DNA of 64,000 nt, from the NCBI GenBank assembly GCA_903823865.1, contig CAIJUJ010000021.1:6732-70731 (forward strand), written 5' to 3'. A program made the position numbers and the translations under genes. The notes below the pieces were generated by a model, which made no database searches, was not told the DNA's origin, and was given only the letters and a program-made list of their open reading frames with translations. This DNA is from an uncultured bacterium. GTDB lineage: Bacteria > Patescibacteriota > Minisyncoccia > Phycocordibacterales > GWA1-40-21. Shown here in pieces: positions 1,372 through 58,004 of this stretch. Numbering within the stretch: position 1 is the stretch's first letter; each line of letters starts with the position of its first letter.

Positions 1372-1563
1372 TTGTGCCAAGGGCCGGAATCTCTCCTTCA
1401 CCTTTCATTTCATCGCCACTCAATTCGGGCTAGGCACCAGTTCATTCACCCCGCAAGCTTGCGGGGTATCATTCCGCTGTTCTCGTCCGGACAGAAGCAA
1501 AGCAGTTTGCTTCCTCCCTCAAGCCAATTTTAAAAACACCAAATGTTGGTGTTTTTAAAATTG
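1372..1563 (-). mobile_element. tRNA-3'-linked miniature element, family I (Phe copy): terminator + GAAGCAAA-GCAG-TTTGCTTC hairpin + inverted T-arm copy + 17-nt direct duplicate of the tRNA-Phe 3' end
   Basis: 'ttgtgccaagggccgga' at 1372-1388 duplicates 1561-1577; hairpin 1494-1513; terminator hairpin 1532-1556; 'gttctcgtccggac' is an inverted copy of the T-arm. Confidence 0.5.
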
Positions 1564-2460: not shown

Positions 2461-2603
2461 TGTGCGAGTGGCGAGAATTGGCTATTACTTAGCCAGGTGC
2501 TTTTCCGCCTCACTTCGCTCGTATATAAAAGCCTTTCGATTCTCGCCCACAAGCAAAGCAGTTTGCTTGTTCACTCGAATTTAAAAACTAATCGTTTTTA
2601 AAT
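2461..2603 (-). mobile_element. tRNA-3'-linked miniature element, family I (Gly copy)
   Basis: 'tgtgcgagtggcgagaat' at 2461-2478 duplicates the tRNA 3' end at 2604-2621; hairpin CAAGCAAA-GCAG-TTTGCTTG at 2550-2569; 'ttcgattctcgccca' is an inverted T-arm copy; body homologous to the Met copy at 57243. Confidence 0.5.
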
Positions 2604-6222: not shown

Positions 6223-6762
6223 TTAAACCTTTTTTATATTGGAAAGAGCACTCTTGCTTTTGGAAATGTCTTCAGATATTTCATTTGTTCTTTTTGCGGC
6301 CGCTTCTAGAGTCTTAGACAACATGTCTAAGAAAAAGAAAAAACGAGGGTCGGCTGGATTCTCAGCGAATTCTTTAATATAAGCTTTCGTGAATTCTTCG
6401 CCGAGCTCACGGTACAAAATGTCTATAGCTTTTCCACAGCATTCTTCAATTACTTGCAGGCCTAGAACTCTGTTCACTATGTATGATTGGTCTCTTCTTT
6501 CAGGGTGATTTGTTCCACAAAACTCACATGTGACAGGACCGTATGTTCCATGAGCATCGTTATTCCACCCAAATCCGCCTTCAGGTATTTCACTTTCCCC
6601 AAAAGGTTTAGAAACGATCGGTGCTTTTATATGCATATTGGACCTCCGTCCATCAGAATTTTGAGCTTTAACTTCTAATGAAAGTAAAGCATAGTTAATT
6701 TGGTAAATCAAGAAATTGACGGACATAAAATTCGGGTCCATCACATAAGTGCATCCTAGCAC
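6223..6762 (-). CDS. hypothetical protein (true start possibly Met at ~6636)
   Basis: ORF with 'CEFCGTNHPERRD' Cys/His cluster; the N-terminal 40 aa overlap the tRNA-Tyr terminator region. Confidence 0.45.
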   Translation of the reverse strand: MLGCTYVMDPNFMSVNFLIYQINYALLSLEVKAQNSDGRRSNMHIKAPIVSKPFGESEIPEGGFGWNNDAHGTYGPVTCEFCGTNHPERRDQSYIVNRVLGLQVIEECCGKAIDILYRELGEEFTKAYIKEFAENPADPRFFFFLDMLSKTLEAAAKRTNEISEDISKSKSALSNIKKV

Positions 6763-6773
6763 TTACTCTGGAC

Positions 6774-6812
6774 GCACAAAAATAAAAACGCCATAGAAGC
6801 GTTTTATTTTTG
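6774..6812 (-). terminator. terminator hairpin directly following tRNA-Tyr
   Basis: gcacaaaaataaaaacgc-catagaa-gcgttttatttttgtgc; the stem includes the tRNA 3' nucleotides. Confidence 0.6.
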
Positions 6813-14665: not shown

Positions 14666-14989
14666 ATGTCTGATAATAGATCTGATAAAATTATTAAAAT
14701 AATTAAAAAAGCCGCTGCTGAATTTATGCAGAAAGAATCAAATGGTGCATCACTCGTTACAATTACTGATGTGAAGCTTTCAAATGATGAAAAATATGCT
14801 AATATTCTTTTTACAGTTCTTCCAGAAGATAAAGAGGATGCAGTCTTGGAGTTTACCAAAAGAATAAGGTCTGAATTTCGACAATATATCAAAATCAATA
14901 CAAAACTTGGTAGAATTCCGTCATTTGATTTTCAAGTCGATTTGGGTGAAAAACATAGACAAAAAATAGACACTATTCCTCTTAAATAA
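14666..14989 (+). CDS. rbfA: ribosome-binding factor A
   Basis: Classic position after infB; 'LVTITDVKLSNDEKYANILFTV' KH-like core. Confidence 0.75.
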   Translation: MSDNRSDKIIKIIKKAAAEFMQKESNGASLVTITDVKLSNDEKYANILFTVLPEDKEDAVLEFTKRIRSEFRQYIKINTKLGRIPSFDFQVDLGEKHRQKIDTIPLK

Positions 14990-14993
14990 TATA

Positions 14994-15065
14994 GGCCTGG
15001 TTGCTAAGTGGTAAAGCATTCCTCTGCAAAAGGAATACGCGGGAGTTCGATTCTCCCCCAGGCCT
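14994..15065 (+). tRNA. tRNA-Cys (GCA)
   Basis: Acceptor GGCCTGG/CCAGGCC, anticodon loop CUGCAAA, U73. Confidence 0.9.
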
Positions 15066-15312
15066 CAAGAAATATCATGAAATGATATTTCGGGGAGAAT
15101 CGAAAGACGGAGTGAGCTTGGGTTGGGACCCAAGCGCAAGACCTGTGATAGTTTTATATGAGTGAAAGCGAAATATAAAACAGAACAGGTATACAGATTC
15201 TGTAAGAATCACGAAGTCCGTTTTCAGCAGAAAACGGGTGCGAGTCGGGGTCGAGAAAATTTGTGAGCGACGGCGAACAAATTATTCGTGACCGATTCAC
15301 AGTATTATTAAT
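15066..15312 (+). repeat. tRNA-3'-linked element, family II (Cys copy)
   Basis: Terminator 15069-15091; 'ggggagaatcgaa' is an inverted copy of the tRNA-Cys T-arm; conserved 'gaaagacggag..gagc', hairpin cgtttt-CAGCAG-aaaacg (15219-15236), 'tcgtgaccgattc'. Confidence 0.5.
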
Positions 15313-15396
15313 GCCTGGGTGGCGAAATTGGTAGACGCTAGAGACTTAAAATCTCTCGGTGGCAACATCATGTGGGTTCGATTCCCACCCCAGGCA
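15313..15396 (+). tRNA. tRNA-Leu (TAA)
   Basis: Acceptor GCCTGGG/CCCAGGC, anticodon loop CUUAAAA, long variable arm, A73. Confidence 0.9.
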
Positions 15397-15758
15397 CAGA
15401 TTAAAAGTGACCCATTCCTTGGGTCACTTTTAATTTGTCAGGTGGGAATCGAAAGACGGAGCGCGACGGCGCGAGTCAGGGTCGCGAGATTTTTCAGCAG
15501 AAAAATACTTGTGACCGATTCCCTAATCTTGCTTACGTGTGGGAATCGAAGAACCTTGAGTATATTTTTGAGCATGTACCCATGTGAAAAAATACGAAAG
15601 GTGTACCGTCCATGTAATGGAAGATAAGCGAAGCGGTCCCACCGTTTCTTTAATTTTATTCGGGGTGGGACCCAAATAAAATTTTGTCGAAAAATACTTG
15701 TGACCGATTCCCCAGTTTTAATTGATTTTCCTTCATTTTTCTGATATTTTATTGACAT
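15397..15758 (+). repeat. tRNA-3'-linked element, family II (Leu-TAA copy, two tandem units)
   Basis: Terminator 15402-15433; 'ggtgggaatcgaaagacggagcgcgac'; hairpin attttt-CAGCAG-aaaaat 15489-15506; 'gtgaccgattccc' twice; 'gaaaggtgtac', 'catgtaatgg', 'ggggtgggaccc' modules. Confidence 0.5.
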
Positions 15759-15831
15759 GCGTCCATAGCTCAGCTGGTAGAGCAAATCCCTCTTAAGGAT
15801 AAGGTCGTTGGTTCGACTCCAACTGGACGCA
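15759..15831 (+). tRNA. tRNA-Lys (CTT)
   Basis: Acceptor GCGTCCA/TGGACGC, anticodon loop CUCUUAA, T GTTGG-TTCGACT-CCAAC, A73. Confidence 0.8.
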
Positions 15832-15835
15832 CAAT

Positions 15836-15866
15836 TAAAAAACACCACTTATGTGGTATTTTTTAA
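15836..15866. terminator. bidirectional terminator
   Basis: aaaaaacaccac-ttat-gtggtattttttaa. Confidence 0.75.
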
Positions 15867-16225
15867 TCTTTAAAAGGTTTTTTAATAAAATTAGTTAAAC
15901 TATTTATTTTATCTTTCAAATCCTGTCTAAATTTTTCTTTTCTTTTTTCTTTCAAAAATTTTTCATTTAGTCTTTGAACTGCTTCTTTTGCCAATTTTGG
16001 TTTATTTTCATTAATATATTTAAATAAATCTTGCTTATCTATAAAATTATCATAGTCAATACTGTTCTTTATTTCTTCAGCAACTTCTAATTCTCTTTTG
16101 TAACTTAACAATCTTTGGTCAGGGGTCATAACCTCATCAGCAATGTTTTCTAATTCTTTTATAGAAATAGAATCATTGGAATCTTGATTTTTATTATATA
16201 AATTTGGTTGATTTTCTGAAAACAT
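15863..16225 (-). CDS. hypothetical acidic/coiled-coil protein
   Basis: 120-aa ORF with a terminator at its 3' end; no family recognised. Confidence 0.45.
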   Translation of the reverse strand: MFSENQPNLYNKNQDSNDSISIKELENIADEVMTPDQRLLSYKRELEVAEEIKNSIDYDNFIDKQDLFKYINENKPKLAKEAVQRLNEKFLKEKRKEKFRQDLKDKINSLTNFIKKPFKD

Positions 16226-16335
16226 ATGATTAATTAAATATTAAAATCCATTATATATGATAATTCTTTTTGTTTAAAAAAACAACCAAATTATTGATTT
16301 TAATGTTATTTCAGTATAGAATGCAATCCATAAAT

Positions 16336-16416
16336 GCACGGGTGGTGAAATGGCAGACACGCTAGCCTTAGGAGCTAGTGCCGTAAGGCATGGAGGTTCA
16401 AGTCCTCTCCCGTGCA
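16336..16416 (+). tRNA. tRNA-Leu (TAG)
   Basis: Acceptor GCACGGG/CCCGTGC, anticodon stem CTAGC/GCTAG with loop CUUAGGA, long variable arm, A73. Confidence 0.85.
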
Positions 16417-16690
16417 CAGTAAGAAAACGCCGATAGGGCGTTTTTCTGTGCGCAGGAGAGGACTTGAAAGACGGACTGAGCAAAGGCGAAGGAGCCGGGG
16501 TCGCGCAAATTTTCAGCAGAAAATTATGCGTGACCAAGTCCTCTTGTGAAATAGAAAAAATACGAAGACTATACTGACCATGTAATGACCAAGATTCCTC
16601 TCCCGTGTCGTGTATTTAATTTGGGGTGGGACCAAAATTAAATACTCGTGACCACATTCTATTTTATTTATGTTTTGACATTTAACCAAT
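16417..16690 (+). repeat. tRNA-3'-linked element, family II (Leu-TAG copy)
   Basis: Terminator 16423-16446; 'aggagaggacttgaa' inverted T-arm copy; 'gaaagacggactgagc'; hairpin aatttt-CAGCAG-aaaatt 16508-16525; direct T-arm/3'-end copies 'aagtcctct' and 'cctctcccgtg'. Confidence 0.5.
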
Positions 16691-16752
16691 ATTAATGTAT
16701 TGTCATTTCAGATTAAAAATTCGTACACCCAAAAAACAAGGAGGAACAAACT

Positions 16753-17226
16753 ATGTTAGGAAAAGGAAAGTGTGAAAAATGCGGTGTTATTAAAAAAGTA
16801 TACAGGAACAGAAAAACGGGCAGAATAATTTGCATGAATTGCGGGAAACGCTTAAAATATCACGACCATCTGACACACGAAAGGTGCGTAAGTTGTGGAA
16901 AAATTGCGCATGTACAAGGACGTGATAAAGATGACGAACCTTTGTGCGTAAACTGTTGTACAAAAAAATACCGAAATAATTTGGAAAAGCACCAAAAATG
17001 CTCAATGTGTGGAAAGGTTGCTCCTGTCATAGAGAGAAATGAAAACGGAGAACCTATATGTCAGAGCTGTTATTTAGATAAGTATGTAAAAAATGTTTCA
17101 AAGCATGAAAAATGTGTCATGTGTGGAAACATTTTACCAGTCCATACAAGAGATGAAAATGGGAAACCTCTATGTAATAACTGTGGTTTCCTATTCAAAA
17201 AAAATAAGAAAAAACTCAATGTCTAG
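16753..17226 (+). CDS. cysteine-rich protein with four tandem CxxC-x14-18-CxxC zinc-ribbon repeats
   Basis: Strong SD 'aaggagg' 8 nt upstream; four repeats 'C.KCG...C.NCG'; own terminator. Confidence 0.6.
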   Translation: MLGKGKCEKCGVIKKVYRNRKTGRIICMNCGKRLKYHDHLTHERCVSCGKIAHVQGRDKDDEPLCVNCCTKKYRNNLEKHQKCSMCGKVAPVIERNENGEPICQSCYLDKYVKNVSKHEKCVMCGNILPVHTRDENGKPLCNNCGFLFKKNKKKLNV

Positions 17227-56934: not shown

Positions 56935-57117
56935 GCTGGCCGGAGTTTCTCCCTCGACTAAAGCCTCGTCTTCACTCGGCTTTGTCTGGGCACCAGCTCA
57001 TTCACCTCGCAAGCTTGCGAGGTATCATTCCGCTGTTCGAATCCGGACGCAAGCAAAGCAGTTTGCTTGCTCCAGCCGCGCAAATAAAAATAACCACTTT
57101 CGTGGTATTTTTATTTG
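56902..57117 (-). mobile_element. tRNA-3'-linked miniature element, family I (Asp copy), with an extra partial tandem duplication of its distal end
   Basis: 'gctggccgga' at 56904-56913 and 56935-56944 duplicates the tRNA 3' end at 57122-57131; hairpin GCAAGCAAA-GCAG-TTTGCTTGC at 57049-57070; 'gttcgaatccggac' inverted T-arm copy; body 'tcattcaccYcgcaagcttgcgRggtatcattccgctgttc' shared with the Phe copy. Confidence 0.5.
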
Positions 57118-57242: not shown

Positions 57243-57395
57243 TTCTTGTGTCGACGGGTGGAATCTGCTACTACATAGCCAGGTATTTTTCCACCTCGCT
57301 TCGCTCATACGGAAAAATCTTTCAATTCCGCCACGGAGTGAAGCAGTTCACTCCTCTCGCACTCGAATAAAAATGAATATTCATTTTTATTCTTG
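57243..57395 (-). mobile_element. tRNA-3'-linked miniature element, family I (Met copy)
   Basis: 23-nt 'ttcttgtgtcgacgggtggaatc' at 57243-57265 duplicates 57390-57412; hairpin GAGTGAA-GCAG-TTCACTC at 57336-57353 with compensatory stem changes; body homologous to the Gly copy. Confidence 0.55.
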
Positions 57396-57520: not shown

Positions 57521-57895
57521 CTACTTGTTTAGATAGTGTTTTAATTGTTTATTTAAATATTTTCTTCCAGAACCACCTTTTAGAAATTTCTCTCTACCAA
57601 CCGCATCATCTATATTCAAATATGCTTCATAATAAACAAGTTTCCAGTTGGTTTTATCTTTTGTAGTTCTACACCCCTTTCCTCTTAGATGGTCAGTGAT
57701 TCTTTGTTTTAGATTTGATGAATATCCAATATAAAAACTCTTATCTTCATTTTGTAAAACATATGTATAATACATTTGGTCATTATCACTTTTATACAAA
57801 AATAAATCAAATTTTTGGCCTGCCACGAGACAAAAACTACCTTGGCCGCGCAAAATAAATTGATTACAATTTATCGCCCGGCTCACGAAAAACAA
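57521..57895 (-). CDS. GIY-YIG nuclease-family protein (UPF0213/YhbQ-like; start probably the Met at ~57772)
   Basis: 'YYTYVLQNEDKSFYIGYSSNLKQRITDH...W.LVYYE' GIY-YIG core. Confidence 0.6.
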   Translation of the reverse strand: MFFVSRAINCNQFILRGQGSFCLVAGQKFDLFLYKSDNDQMYYTYVLQNEDKSFYIGYSSNLKQRITDHLRGKGCRTTKDKTNWKLVYYEAYLNIDDAVGREKFLKGGSGRKYLNKQLKHYLNK

Positions 57896-57930: not shown

Positions 57931-58004
57931 TGGTTGCGGGGGCCCGAATTGCACGGACGTCTCCAGGTTATGAGCCTGGCGAATTACTGCTACTCTACCC
58001 CGCT
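57931..58004 (-). tRNA. tRNA-Met (CAT), initiator-like, with genomically encoded CCA
   Basis: A1xA72 mismatch; D GAGU/AUUC; anticodon stem CCAGG/CCUGG with loop CUCAUAA; T GUCCG-UGCAAUU-CGGGC; 3' A-CCA encoded; promoter-like TTGAAC..TAAATT upstream. Confidence 0.55.

Follow-up and report, generated by a model that had tools for sequence, protein, structure and literature searches.

tRNA Genes Followed by Partial Copies of Themselves

We analyzed a 64,000-nucleotide (nt) stretch of DNA from an uncultured bacterium of the Patescibacteriota (contig CAIJUJ010000021.1; this whole stretch is called the window below), in which four transfer RNA (tRNA) genes, Cys, Leu-taa, Lys-ctt, and Leu-tag, form a cluster on the plus strand 3' of rbfA. 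Three of them, for Cys and the two Leu tRNAs, are each followed by a short noncoding cassette, here called a family-II tRNA-tail element. An initial annotation made from the letters of the window had noticed these tRNAs, describing behind each a hairpin, an inverted copy of its T arm, a conserved body, and a direct copy, and all of these features are present (Table 1). A unit runs in the order tRNA, hairpin, X', core, and X''. X' is an inverted copy of the tRNA (its Watson-Crick complement) that starts at T54, spans the acceptor strand, and often enters the trailer, and X'' is a direct copy starting at C56. The cassettes measure ~85–230 nt, and in the examples read a further hairpin or terminator usually lies 3' of X''. 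The core is composed of GAAAGACGGA, hairpin P2, GAGUCGGGGUCG, hairpin P3, and GUGACC; its window variant has GAGUC(G/A)GGGUCG between P2 and P3 and YGUGACC at the end. X' abuts the post-tRNA hairpin, so that the 3' half of the tRNA, the hairpin, and X' make up a single long palindrome.

The inverted copies are T-arm copies as first described, but they are not confined to the T arm: X' of Leu-tag reaches the acceptor strand, and in other genomes X' runs through the 3' trailer up to the hairpin. The motif GAAAGACGGANNGNGC occurs three times in the 64 kb of the window vs. 0.46 times expected, a count reached by none of 100 shuffles, and the exact TTTTCAGCAGAAAA sites of the window (n = 3) all fall within the three units; elsewhere in the window, the conserved words are missing.

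Table 1. Features of the tRNA cluster and other tRNA-tail elements in the window
Feature	Position	Strand	Basis and details
tRNA-Cys(gca), host gene of unit A	14994..15066	+	ARAGORN, Rfam tRNA
Hairpin gaaatatcat-gaa-atgatatttc 3' of tRNA-Cys	15069..15091	+	Also at the empty L124 site and in L132, L128, L182
Unit A	15092..15298	+	X' ggggagaatcgaa 15092–15104; family-II core 15102–15293; X'' cgattc 15293–15298
Nested ~100-nt module in P2 of unit A	15113..15209	+	GUGAGC-hairpin-GCGCAAGACC plus two hairpins
tRNA-Leu(taa), host gene of unit B	15313..15397	+	ARAGORN, Rfam
Hairpin separating tRNA-Leu(taa) from unit B	15398..15439	+	19-base-pair hairpin in full-transcript fold
Unit B, minimal 66-nt core	15441..15523	+	X' ggtgggaatcgaa 15441–15453; core 15451–15516; X'' cgattccc 15516–15523
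Unit B2, chimera, inserted 3' of unit B	15537..15713	+	Absent in L006, L126
tRNA-Lys(ctt), unoccupied site	15759..15832	+	Neither inverted nor direct copy
tRNA-Leu(tag), host gene of unit C1	16336..16417	+	ARAGORN, Rfam
Terminator-type hairpin 3' of tRNA-Leu(tag)	16418..16447	+	Tip of long X:X' hairpin in fold
Unit C1	16448..16544	+	X' gtgcgcaggagaggacttgaa 16448–16468; family-II core 16466–16535; X'' caagtcctct 16535–16544
Family-IV core remnant	16555..16607	+	Ends in direct tRNA 3'-end copy ttcctctcccgtg (16595–16607)
Degenerate family-II-like 3' half	16608..16653	+	Hairpin with GGGGUGGGACC, then CGUGACC; resembles 3' part of B2
Family-I element 3' of tRNA-Gly	2461..2577	-
Family-I element 3' of tRNA-Met	57247..57364	-
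Family-V element 3' of tRNA-Asp	56935..57082	-
Family-V element 3' of tRNA-Phe	1373..1525	-
Remnant element 3' of tRNA-Tyr	6731..6778	-

The hairpin behind tRNA-Cys is ancestral at this site, being present in L124, whose site is empty, as well as in L132, L128, and L182. Unit A was recognized by motif search, by a partial match to model R1 at 15202–15302, and by its orthologs in L132, L182, L126, and L006. Its CAGCAG hairpin lies in P2 and not in P3, which corrects the layout first described, and the same P2 also holds the nested module, which is present in L128 and missing from the orthologous element of L132, L182, and L126. Units B and C1 match model R1 with 96 bits (E = 3e-27) and 89.7 bits (E = 3e-25), respectively, and the hairpin in front of unit B is identical in L132 and near-identical in L126. 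The tail of Leu-taa had been read as two tandem units. The second of these, B2, is instead a chimera of X' gtgtgggaatcgaa, a family-IV core with the non-family-II signature GAGUAUAUUUUU..AAAAAAUACGAA..CAUGUAAU, a degenerate family-II 3' half (GGGGUGGGACC..GUGACC), and X'' cgattcccc; in L006 and L126, the downstream spacer follows directly after unit B. We agree with the initial annotation that no open reading frame (ORF) here is plausible, since those present overlap tRNAs and are unconserved. A 136-amino-acid (aa) ORF at 15438–15848(-), which is a gene call in the public assembly (L001 1851–2258) and lies antisense over B, B2, and tRNA-Lys, is almost certainly spurious.

A Patescibacterial Element Family Tied to tRNA 3' Ends

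Copies are not restricted to the window. A pattern scan for GAAAGACGGA..GGGTCG..GTGACC, using one genome per species, yielded at least 120 loci, from which the copy counts given below are drawn; L-numbers label individual loci. Among the matches listed, about 110 are from Patescibacteria (also known as CPR bacteria) and 9 are chance matches in other phyla; a covariance model built from an alignment of the cores confirmed copies in the Patescibacteria loci searched, among them Saccharibacteria, Paceibacterota, and Nomura-, Kaiser-, Wolfe-, Yonath-, Zambryski-, and Taylorbacteria, and none of the 9 outside the phylum. The same pattern gave 2 chance matches and nothing comparable in IMG/VR, and blastn gave no match among the INPHARED phages or PLSDB plasmids, so that a phage or plasmid origin is rejected for these three collections.

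Among the 96 copies with enough upstream sequence to be evaluated, 64 have a same-strand tRNA ending at most 130 nt upstream, against 1.5% by chance; 10 more lie in arrays with the tRNA 131–600 nt upstream, and none has an opposite-strand tRNA neighbor. The host tRNAs span 17 amino acid specificities. One further copy, in L111, follows a group I intron detected by Rfam, and its host is probably an intron-split tRNA missed by ARAGORN. Occupancy is far from complete: an exact inverted copy is found at 5 of 15 window tRNAs and at 17% in an unbiased set of relatives, some downstream element is found at 8 of the 15 window tRNAs, and about two-thirds or more of tRNAs carry none. These results identify a genuine repeated noncoding element family tied to tRNA 3' ends.

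Genes for transfer-messenger RNA (tmRNA) are also used. In L084 (2566–2958) and L072 (5892–6286), a family-II element lies behind the tmRNA gene and has arms copied from the 3' end of the tmRNA, and in L072 a second element of another family lies between the tmRNA gene and the family-II element. Four Saccharibacteria loci (L014 2080–2390(-), L064, L114, and L121) hold a stand-alone family-II core in a ~300-nt stretch with no tRNA nearby. P1 of these stand-alone copies covaries (UUCGGG, GUCGGG, CUUGGG, GUUGGG) and is not derived from a tRNA; L014 alone has a promoter-like TTGACA on its upstream side and a terminator hairpin on its downstream side, and Rfam gave no match on any of the four.

Clustering of the 426 ORFs found within 1.5 kb of copies returned housekeeping proteins only (IF-2, RbfA, HU, RluD-like, and MiaA), without any protein family common to the element neighborhoods, and Pfam gave nothing relevant on four candidate neighbor proteins. 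At two independent loci, L020 and L091, a sequence resembling a transposon right end (..tgtctactaaaaggggtacg) stands ~65 nt upstream of the family-II core, with the hairpin and X' between this end and the core; a neighboring ORF in L020 looks transposase-like by eye.

Both Arms Follow the Host tRNA

The median pairing energy of X' is -21.9 kcal/mol with its own tRNA and -13.7 kcal/mol with other tRNAs. The own tRNA is the best partner of X' in 27 of 66 cases and the best match of X'' in 33 of 66. Furthermore, the tRNA is a better partner of X' than X'' is in 29 cases, compared with 1 case of the opposite, implying that coupling to the tRNA itself is maintained, and not just P1, the helix in which X' pairs with X''. 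In L126, where the T arm of tRNA-Cys has changed, X' and X'' have changed in parallel. The direct copy varies in length from 5 to 38 nt, with the long copies identical to the tRNA over 18–38 nt; in 18 of the 28 long copies, identity stops at the discriminator or 1–2 bases past it, and in a few it runs into the trailer or terminator (L027, +20 nt; L025, +9; also L124). P1 likewise extends to the discriminator and trailer. A subfamily represented by L003 and L012 has almost no X'. In L002 (6273–6471(-)), the family-II arms fit a tRNA-Asp like that of L093 (TTCAAGTCCCTTCGACTGCG) and not the adjacent, unusual tRNA-Asp.

Three simpler origins of the arms were considered. Where tRNA stems contain G.U or mismatched positions, X' agrees with the complement of the 3' strand 16 times and with the base of the tRNA 5' strand 3 times, so that X' is a true inverted copy and not the relic of a duplicated tRNA; a degenerate tRNA duplicate or pseudogene is thus ruled out. 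Reverse transcription of X'' from a mature tRNA is unsupported, as CCA was gained in 5 copies and lost relative to the gene in 3, and is also disfavored by X'' identity that sometimes reaches the trailer. A preexisting, empty X'/X'' scaffold filled later was not seen among 325 tRNAs, where the minimum gap between arms was 54 nt.

The Core Is a Covarying Three-Way Junction

The core folds into a three-way junction of P1, P2, and P3 with ~27 invariant bases, which comprise GAAAGACGGA, GAG-C-GGGUCG, and GUGACC. In the window, unit B folds at -41 kcal/mol (z = -6.1; reverse complement, -30), unit C at -43 kcal/mol (z = -6.5; reverse complement, -34), and unit A at -76.6 kcal/mol, vs. -63.6 kcal/mol for its reverse complement, the plus strand folding better than the minus strand by 10–13 kcal/mol. 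An alignment of 29 short cores from different genomes bears out the stem covariation noticed earlier for one hairpin in the window: paired cells amount to 91%, vs. 73.5% when shuffled and 33–44% with partners slid, double-sided changes fill 160 cells vs. 46, and 19 of 30 pairs show compensatory changes. All three helices covary, with P1 covariation being partly automatic because both arms are derived from one tRNA. RNAalifold independently recovers P1, P2, and P3; only the register of three invariant P2-base pairs is ambiguous.

One G.U pair in P3 is invariant in all 29 cores, and a second position alternates among G.U, G-C, and A-U. The opposite strand would have C.A mismatches at these G.U sites, which fixes the tRNA-sense strand. 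Given the conserved three-way junction and the invariant G.U pair, the core acts as a single strand in the tRNA sense and is most likely RNA. In many Ser, Gly, and Arg copies, moreover, a tandem G.A (X' ..GAUGA|GAAAG paired with X'' GAAUC..) replaces the top two Watson-Crick pairs of P1, a motif typical of RNA that simple DNA copying cannot produce.

The copies examined have one YAGYAR-type loop and one mini-hairpin of the GAGCGA(N)GGCGA or GCGCGACGGCGC type, and these two hairpins can swap between P2 and P3, as in window unit B compared with its L126/L132 ortholog. The CAGCAG loop, which had been called invariant, is so within the window; elsewhere it is replaced by CAGUAG, UAGCAA, or CACCAG. 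A further hairpin, H, with the loop CUGC interrupts X' in many copies of every family. In every clean case among the family-II copies measured, H sits at tRNA position 65/66, the acceptor/T-stem junction, so that P1 and H together are connected like a tRNA minihelix that has a side arm. Kissing between the CUGC loop of H and CAGCAG-type loops was considered and set aside, as no covariation was apparent by eye; the other loops vary or are absent while H keeps CUGC.

Folding of full transcripts keeps the cloverleaf together with P1 for Leu-taa, and for Leu-tag the lowest-energy structure pairs the 3' half of the tRNA with X'. Pairing of X' with either the tRNA or X'' is thus thermodynamically possible in these predicted folds.

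Sister Families Share the Layout

The same layout, with the inverted copy proximal and the direct copy distal, had been reported for a second family, family I, and we find it in the other core families of the window as well. All five other-core window elements, following tRNA-Gly, -Met, -Asp, -Phe, and -Tyr, have the order X', core, X''; H splits X' in four of them, and the hairpin of the Tyr element differs. In place of the two element families first proposed, we count at least four. For families I, IV, and V, all strict-motif matches have a same-strand tRNA upstream. The families were said to be unrelated in sequence, but they have in common a GAA|AG start, a GAGCGA(N)GGCGAA-type mini-hairpin, and GNRA-capped hairpins.

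A hairpin module containing UUGGGUUGGGACCCAA or GGGGUGGGACC variants recurs in or beside the elements (window 15120–15135, 15670–15680, and 16623–16632) and in many spacers of L124–L182, and its stem forms P1 in the stand-alone copies. A small ORF at 57521–57775(-) with a GIY-YIG nuclease domain (Pfam, E = 4e-15) lies between two tRNA-Met genes, near a family-I element. Among the window tRNAs read, an encoded CCA is missing from all except an initiator-like tRNA-Met (57931–58004), and in nearly all of them the discriminator is immediately followed by C, mostly as N73-C-A. Finally, a 157-aa, CxxC-rich ORF at 16753–17226(+) has weak zinc-ribbon matches only; it lies between the Leu-tag elements and a ribonucleotide reductase gene and is absent there in the close relatives L132 and L124.

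Occupancy of Orthologous tRNAs Changes Rapidly

We compared the rbfA-Cys-Leu-Lys-Leu cluster across 59 relatives and found conserved structure at the orthologous positions, not plain divergent spacer, with sites that are filled, empty, or occupied by another family. The Cys site is filled with an orthologous unit in the window, L132, L128, L182, L126, and L006, and is empty in the outgroup L129 and in L124, where RbfA is 95% identical and the same hairpin is present without a unit. At Leu-taa, the hairpin, X', and a private GAGUCAGGGUCG variant are common to the window and L126/L132, but the P2 and P3 hairpins differ between them. The Lys site is empty in the window, L124, L132, and L129, and is filled with family V in L182, family III in L006, and family II in L127, L135, L136, L150, and L164. 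The Leu-tag site carries family II plus a family-IV remnant in the window, full family-IV elements in L124, L127, and L006, with the original terminator 3' of X'', and tRNA and terminator only in L132. The occupancy of orthologous tRNAs changes on short evolutionary time scales, and the pattern of filled and empty sites can be read as losses as well as gains.

Cores also recur at unrelated tRNAs. Those that are 94–98% identical follow Lys-ctt, Leu-tag, Leu-caa, Ser-cga, Asp-gtc, Glu-ctc, and Arg-tct in different species. A 64-nt spacer, core, and GAAAGUGUACUCAC tail are common to Lys-ctt (L003/L090) and Arg-tct (L012/L073), and these copies each end in a host-specific X''. Purely vertical descent, in which the core would track tRNA identity, is rejected, as the association is very weak (0.70 vs. 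0.68); the nearest-neighbor core has the same anticodon in 9 of 63 cases. Tandem arrays, nested modules, and decayed, truncated, and chimeric copies are common.

Comparison with Known Elements

At gathering score, Rfam recovers only the tRNAs in the window, and at E values up to 10 it adds only chance matches to microRNAs and small RNAs in 14900–16800. No Rfam 15 covariance model matches the element, which rejects the hammerhead, twister, pistol, hatchet, and HDV-like ribozymes, riboswitches, and the T-box, as well as tmRNA, RNase P, and group I and II introns; none of the known self-cleaving ribozyme classes matches the core in the permissive search. A class C group II intron is rejected by its lack of an Rfam group II match and by size, the element being far too small. 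In PMC13011429, group II introns are reported absent from Patescibacteria, and a paper on Patescibacteria tRNA introns describes introns of the anticodon loop only. Elements in tRNA tails are undescribed in the literature that we searched, also by the literal core motif.

The nearest known systems are attachment (att) sites of the T-loop sublocation, followed by repeats of the type of MITEs (miniature inverted-repeat transposable elements) and repetitive extragenic palindromic (REP) sequences; the logic of the arms is undescribed. Williams is said to have described, in 2002, the classic T-loop sublocation of integrase sites at tRNA and tmRNA genes. The tRNA-tail elements resemble such integrative elements in a direct repeat that begins in the T loop and reaches the 3' end (X'' matches the tRNA from C56 as far as the discriminator plus C, in some copies farther), in keeping the tRNA intact, in using tmRNA genes, and in the tandem pile-up of generations. 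They differ in having no integrase or other gene, in measuring 85–230 nt only, in their added inverted copy, and in a folded conserved core between the copies that is the same at many tRNAs. A defining feature of integrase-mediated elements is thus lacking: the inserts carry no ORF, and no integrase cluster was found among the neighboring ORFs.

With MITEs, REP sequences and bacterial interspersed mosaic elements (BIMEs), and the Correia, RUP, and ERIC repeats, the elements have in common that they are short, noncoding, multicopy, hairpin-forming, and nonautonomous, that they are intergenic and often follow terminators, and that nested or decayed copies occur. Unlike these, the "terminal inverted repeat" is copied from the neighboring tRNA and is site-specific, the position is strictly just downstream of the tRNA on the same strand, and the core has the conservation of a riboswitch, with covariation. 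A MITE in the proper sense is rejected on these grounds, as the arms differ at each site and match the local tRNA where an element would have terminal inverted repeats of its own, the direct copy (5–38 nt) is no fixed duplication, and no transposase family is common to the neighborhoods. In comparison with the palindrome-associated transposable elements (PATEs) and REPs of IS200/IS605, the hairpin adjoining the tRNA varies between sites, and no Y1 gene is found among neighboring ORFs.

A riboswitch is suggested by the conserved three-way junction whose P1 competes with pairing to the tRNA, but the element lies 3' of tRNA or tmRNA and not in a 5' leader, and no aptamer family matches. A retron or other RNA linked to reverse transcriptase (RT) is rejected, given no RT-like cluster among neighbors and a posttranscriptional CCA that is no more frequent in copies (5) than in genes (3). 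As with the attP/XerCD site of CTXphi and integron attC, two inverted segments form a duplex imitating the chromosomal target, and a single-strand integration product would have the order seen here; in contrast, there is no phage or cassette cargo and no recombinase among the neighboring ORFs, and the G.U and G.A content and the junction bases suggest RNA. The mascRNA of MALAT1, viral tRNA-like structures, the tRNA-like domain of tmRNA, and external guides of RNase P share the coaxial helix of acceptor plus T stem, here made of the tRNA 3' strand and its complement, with a side hairpin at the position 7/49 side. In the tRNA-tail elements, however, a three-way-junction core replaces the T loop, the helix runs through the discriminator and trailer, and the 5' strand is the complement of the 3' strand and no copy of the tRNA 5' strand. 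Finally, origin-dependent inverted-repeat amplification (ODIRA) and duplication–inverted triplication–duplication rearrangements (DUP-TRP/INV-DUP) have the same direct-inverted-direct order with junctions at two palindromes, here the post-tRNA hairpin and TTCGAA of the T loop; the tRNA-tail elements differ from them in a scale of tens of bases, a foreign conserved core at one junction, and recurrence at hundreds of tRNA genes.

Possible Origins and Functions

The reading that we favor, with about an even chance of being right, is that the elements are duplicative, nonautonomous cassettes at tRNA tails that encode a structured RNA and no protein. Cassettes would spread by copying from one tRNA locus, or one genome, to another, with homology provided by the T-loop portion of the arms, which is nearly universal. 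The sequence of the arms would come from the local tRNA, or be corrected to match it, through copy-back (template switching) at the two palindromes named above. Such copy-back would lead to the inverted-triplication-like order X, X', X'', where X is the tRNA segment itself, and to the fixed T-loop boundary, the variable outer boundary, the abutment of X' on the hairpin, and the concerted change of all three segments. Transcription of the unit would be by read-through from the tRNA promoter; P1 plus H would mimic an acceptor/T minihelix, so that tRNA-processing enzymes could trim the unit, and the folded core may be a ribozyme or a handle for a trans-acting factor. Targeting of tRNA ends by the element, which the initial annotation suggested, is putative. 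A more specific form, which we consider unlikely, holds that the element is a new kind of gene-less mobile element with target-written specificity or a ribozyme guided by X'. In the former case, copy-back synthesis, set off by a nick or a stall in the T loop of a tRNA or tmRNA gene, would lay down X' and X'' around a catalytic or factor-recruiting RNA core; in the latter, X' would be the guide and X'' a spare part, and the ribozyme would exchange, repair, or inactivate the 3' half of its cognate tRNA.

Several observations weigh against duplicative cassettes. We found no copy-and-paste event with an unambiguous empty ancestor, and the empty Cys site of L124 and Leu-tag site of L132 may be deletions. 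Copies within one genome are 70–80% alike, which rules out a recent burst. The misfit between the arms of L002 and the adjacent tRNA indicates that arms can travel with the element rather than be written at insertion. A hairpin that is often a plausible terminator stands between tRNA and element, making read-through only putative, and no mobilizing enzyme was identified among the 426 neighboring ORFs within 1.5 kb. A core so strongly conserved throughout the phylum would be compatible with a host function as well. Copy-back alone, moreover, leaves unexplained both the conserved core at every X'/X'' junction and the position of H at 65/66, and the fold must therefore matter, either for propagation or for the host.

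A function for the host could take the form of a small RNA family (a protein sponge, cofactor, or ribozyme) that rides on strong tRNA promoters, its tRNA-like helix of P1 and H being cut out by RNase P and RNase Z and its redundancy leaving copy number free; we regard this as a tentative and somewhat improbable explanation. It would account for ~27 invariant bases and covariation maintained from Saccharibacteria to Paceibacterota, for the G.U pairs, tandem G.A, and (in sister families) GNRA-capped hairpins that are motifs of RNA, and for the stand-alone copies of four Saccharibacteria loci, with the promoter- and terminator-like signals of L014. It would also explain why H lies at 65/66, the sole place where an insertion preserves the minihelix, and the hairpin or terminator that usually follows X'' in the examples read would fit. 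A host RNA is harder to reconcile with the many decayed, truncated, chimeric, and nested copies, with presence and absence varying between relatives whose RbfA is 95% identical, and with arms that follow the tRNA at all, for a processing helix need not match its neighbor. P1, furthermore, pairs the discriminator and trailer, which are left free in a true acceptor end, and X' remains matched to the tRNA where X'' has decayed (29 vs. 1).

Two further explanations put the arms themselves to use, one in RNA and the other in DNA. A cis-acting switch on tRNA maturation, the least probable of the explanations considered, would have X' pair either with the 3' half of the tRNA, misfolding it, or with X'' in P1, the choice being made by the folded core, perhaps bound to a ligand or protein, as in the 1:2 vs. 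2:3 pairing of an attenuator. Aptamers are usually laid out as a three-way junction closed by a switching P1, both pairings are present and specific to the host tRNA, tRNA, X', and X'' change in concert in L126, and the predicted folds give both outcomes (cloverleaf plus P1 for Leu-taa, tRNA:X' for Leu-tag). The switch, however, would have to operate behind a hairpin with U-rich 3' arms that should stop many transcripts before X', would require all of at least four unrelated cores to be sensors, and would have to leave about two-thirds or more of tRNAs unregulated for want of any element; the near absence of X' in the L003/L012 subfamily and the arrays and remnants are likewise unexpected for a regulator. 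Only slightly more credible, and still highly improbable, is an attachment site of folded single-stranded DNA, with the recombinase encoded elsewhere, or a functionless by-product of template switching in replication. The arms and hairpin would fold into a duplex copy of the tRNA segment from the T loop to the 3' end, as in CTXphi/XerCD and attC. The order X, hairpin, X', loop, X'' can be derived as the expected remainder of single-strand integration of an X/X' hairpin at the T loop, X, hairpin, and X' do form a continuous long palindrome, the direct repeat at times enters the trailer or terminator (L027, +20 nt; L124), and the direct repeat from T loop to 3' end and the use of tmRNA match what is reportedly typical of the T-loop sublocation. 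Against a DNA site stand the lack of an integrase or HUH-nuclease gene among neighboring ORFs, the lack of anything comparable in the viral, phage, and plasmid collections scanned, and the implied circles of just 130–250 nt. The unpaired conserved junction bases, the tandem G.A, and the stand-alone copies resembling transcription units favor RNA, and a by-product cannot account for a conserved, covarying core.

Significance

Several practical consequences follow for genome analysis: the elements give rise to spurious ORF calls, methods that infer genomic islands and prophage att sites from direct repeats of tRNA 3' ends can be misled by them, and the long palindromes that they make can disturb assembly. 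For the bacteria themselves, the finding means that, in a radiation of tiny genomes, a sizeable share of tRNA genes carries a structured tail built in part from the gene's own sequence. If the elements are mobile, they would provide a route by which an element without any protein adopts the sequence of each of its targets; if they are host RNAs, they would constitute a large, phylum-wide RNA class tied to tRNA and tmRNA biology, with a conservation like that of riboswitches and ribozymes.

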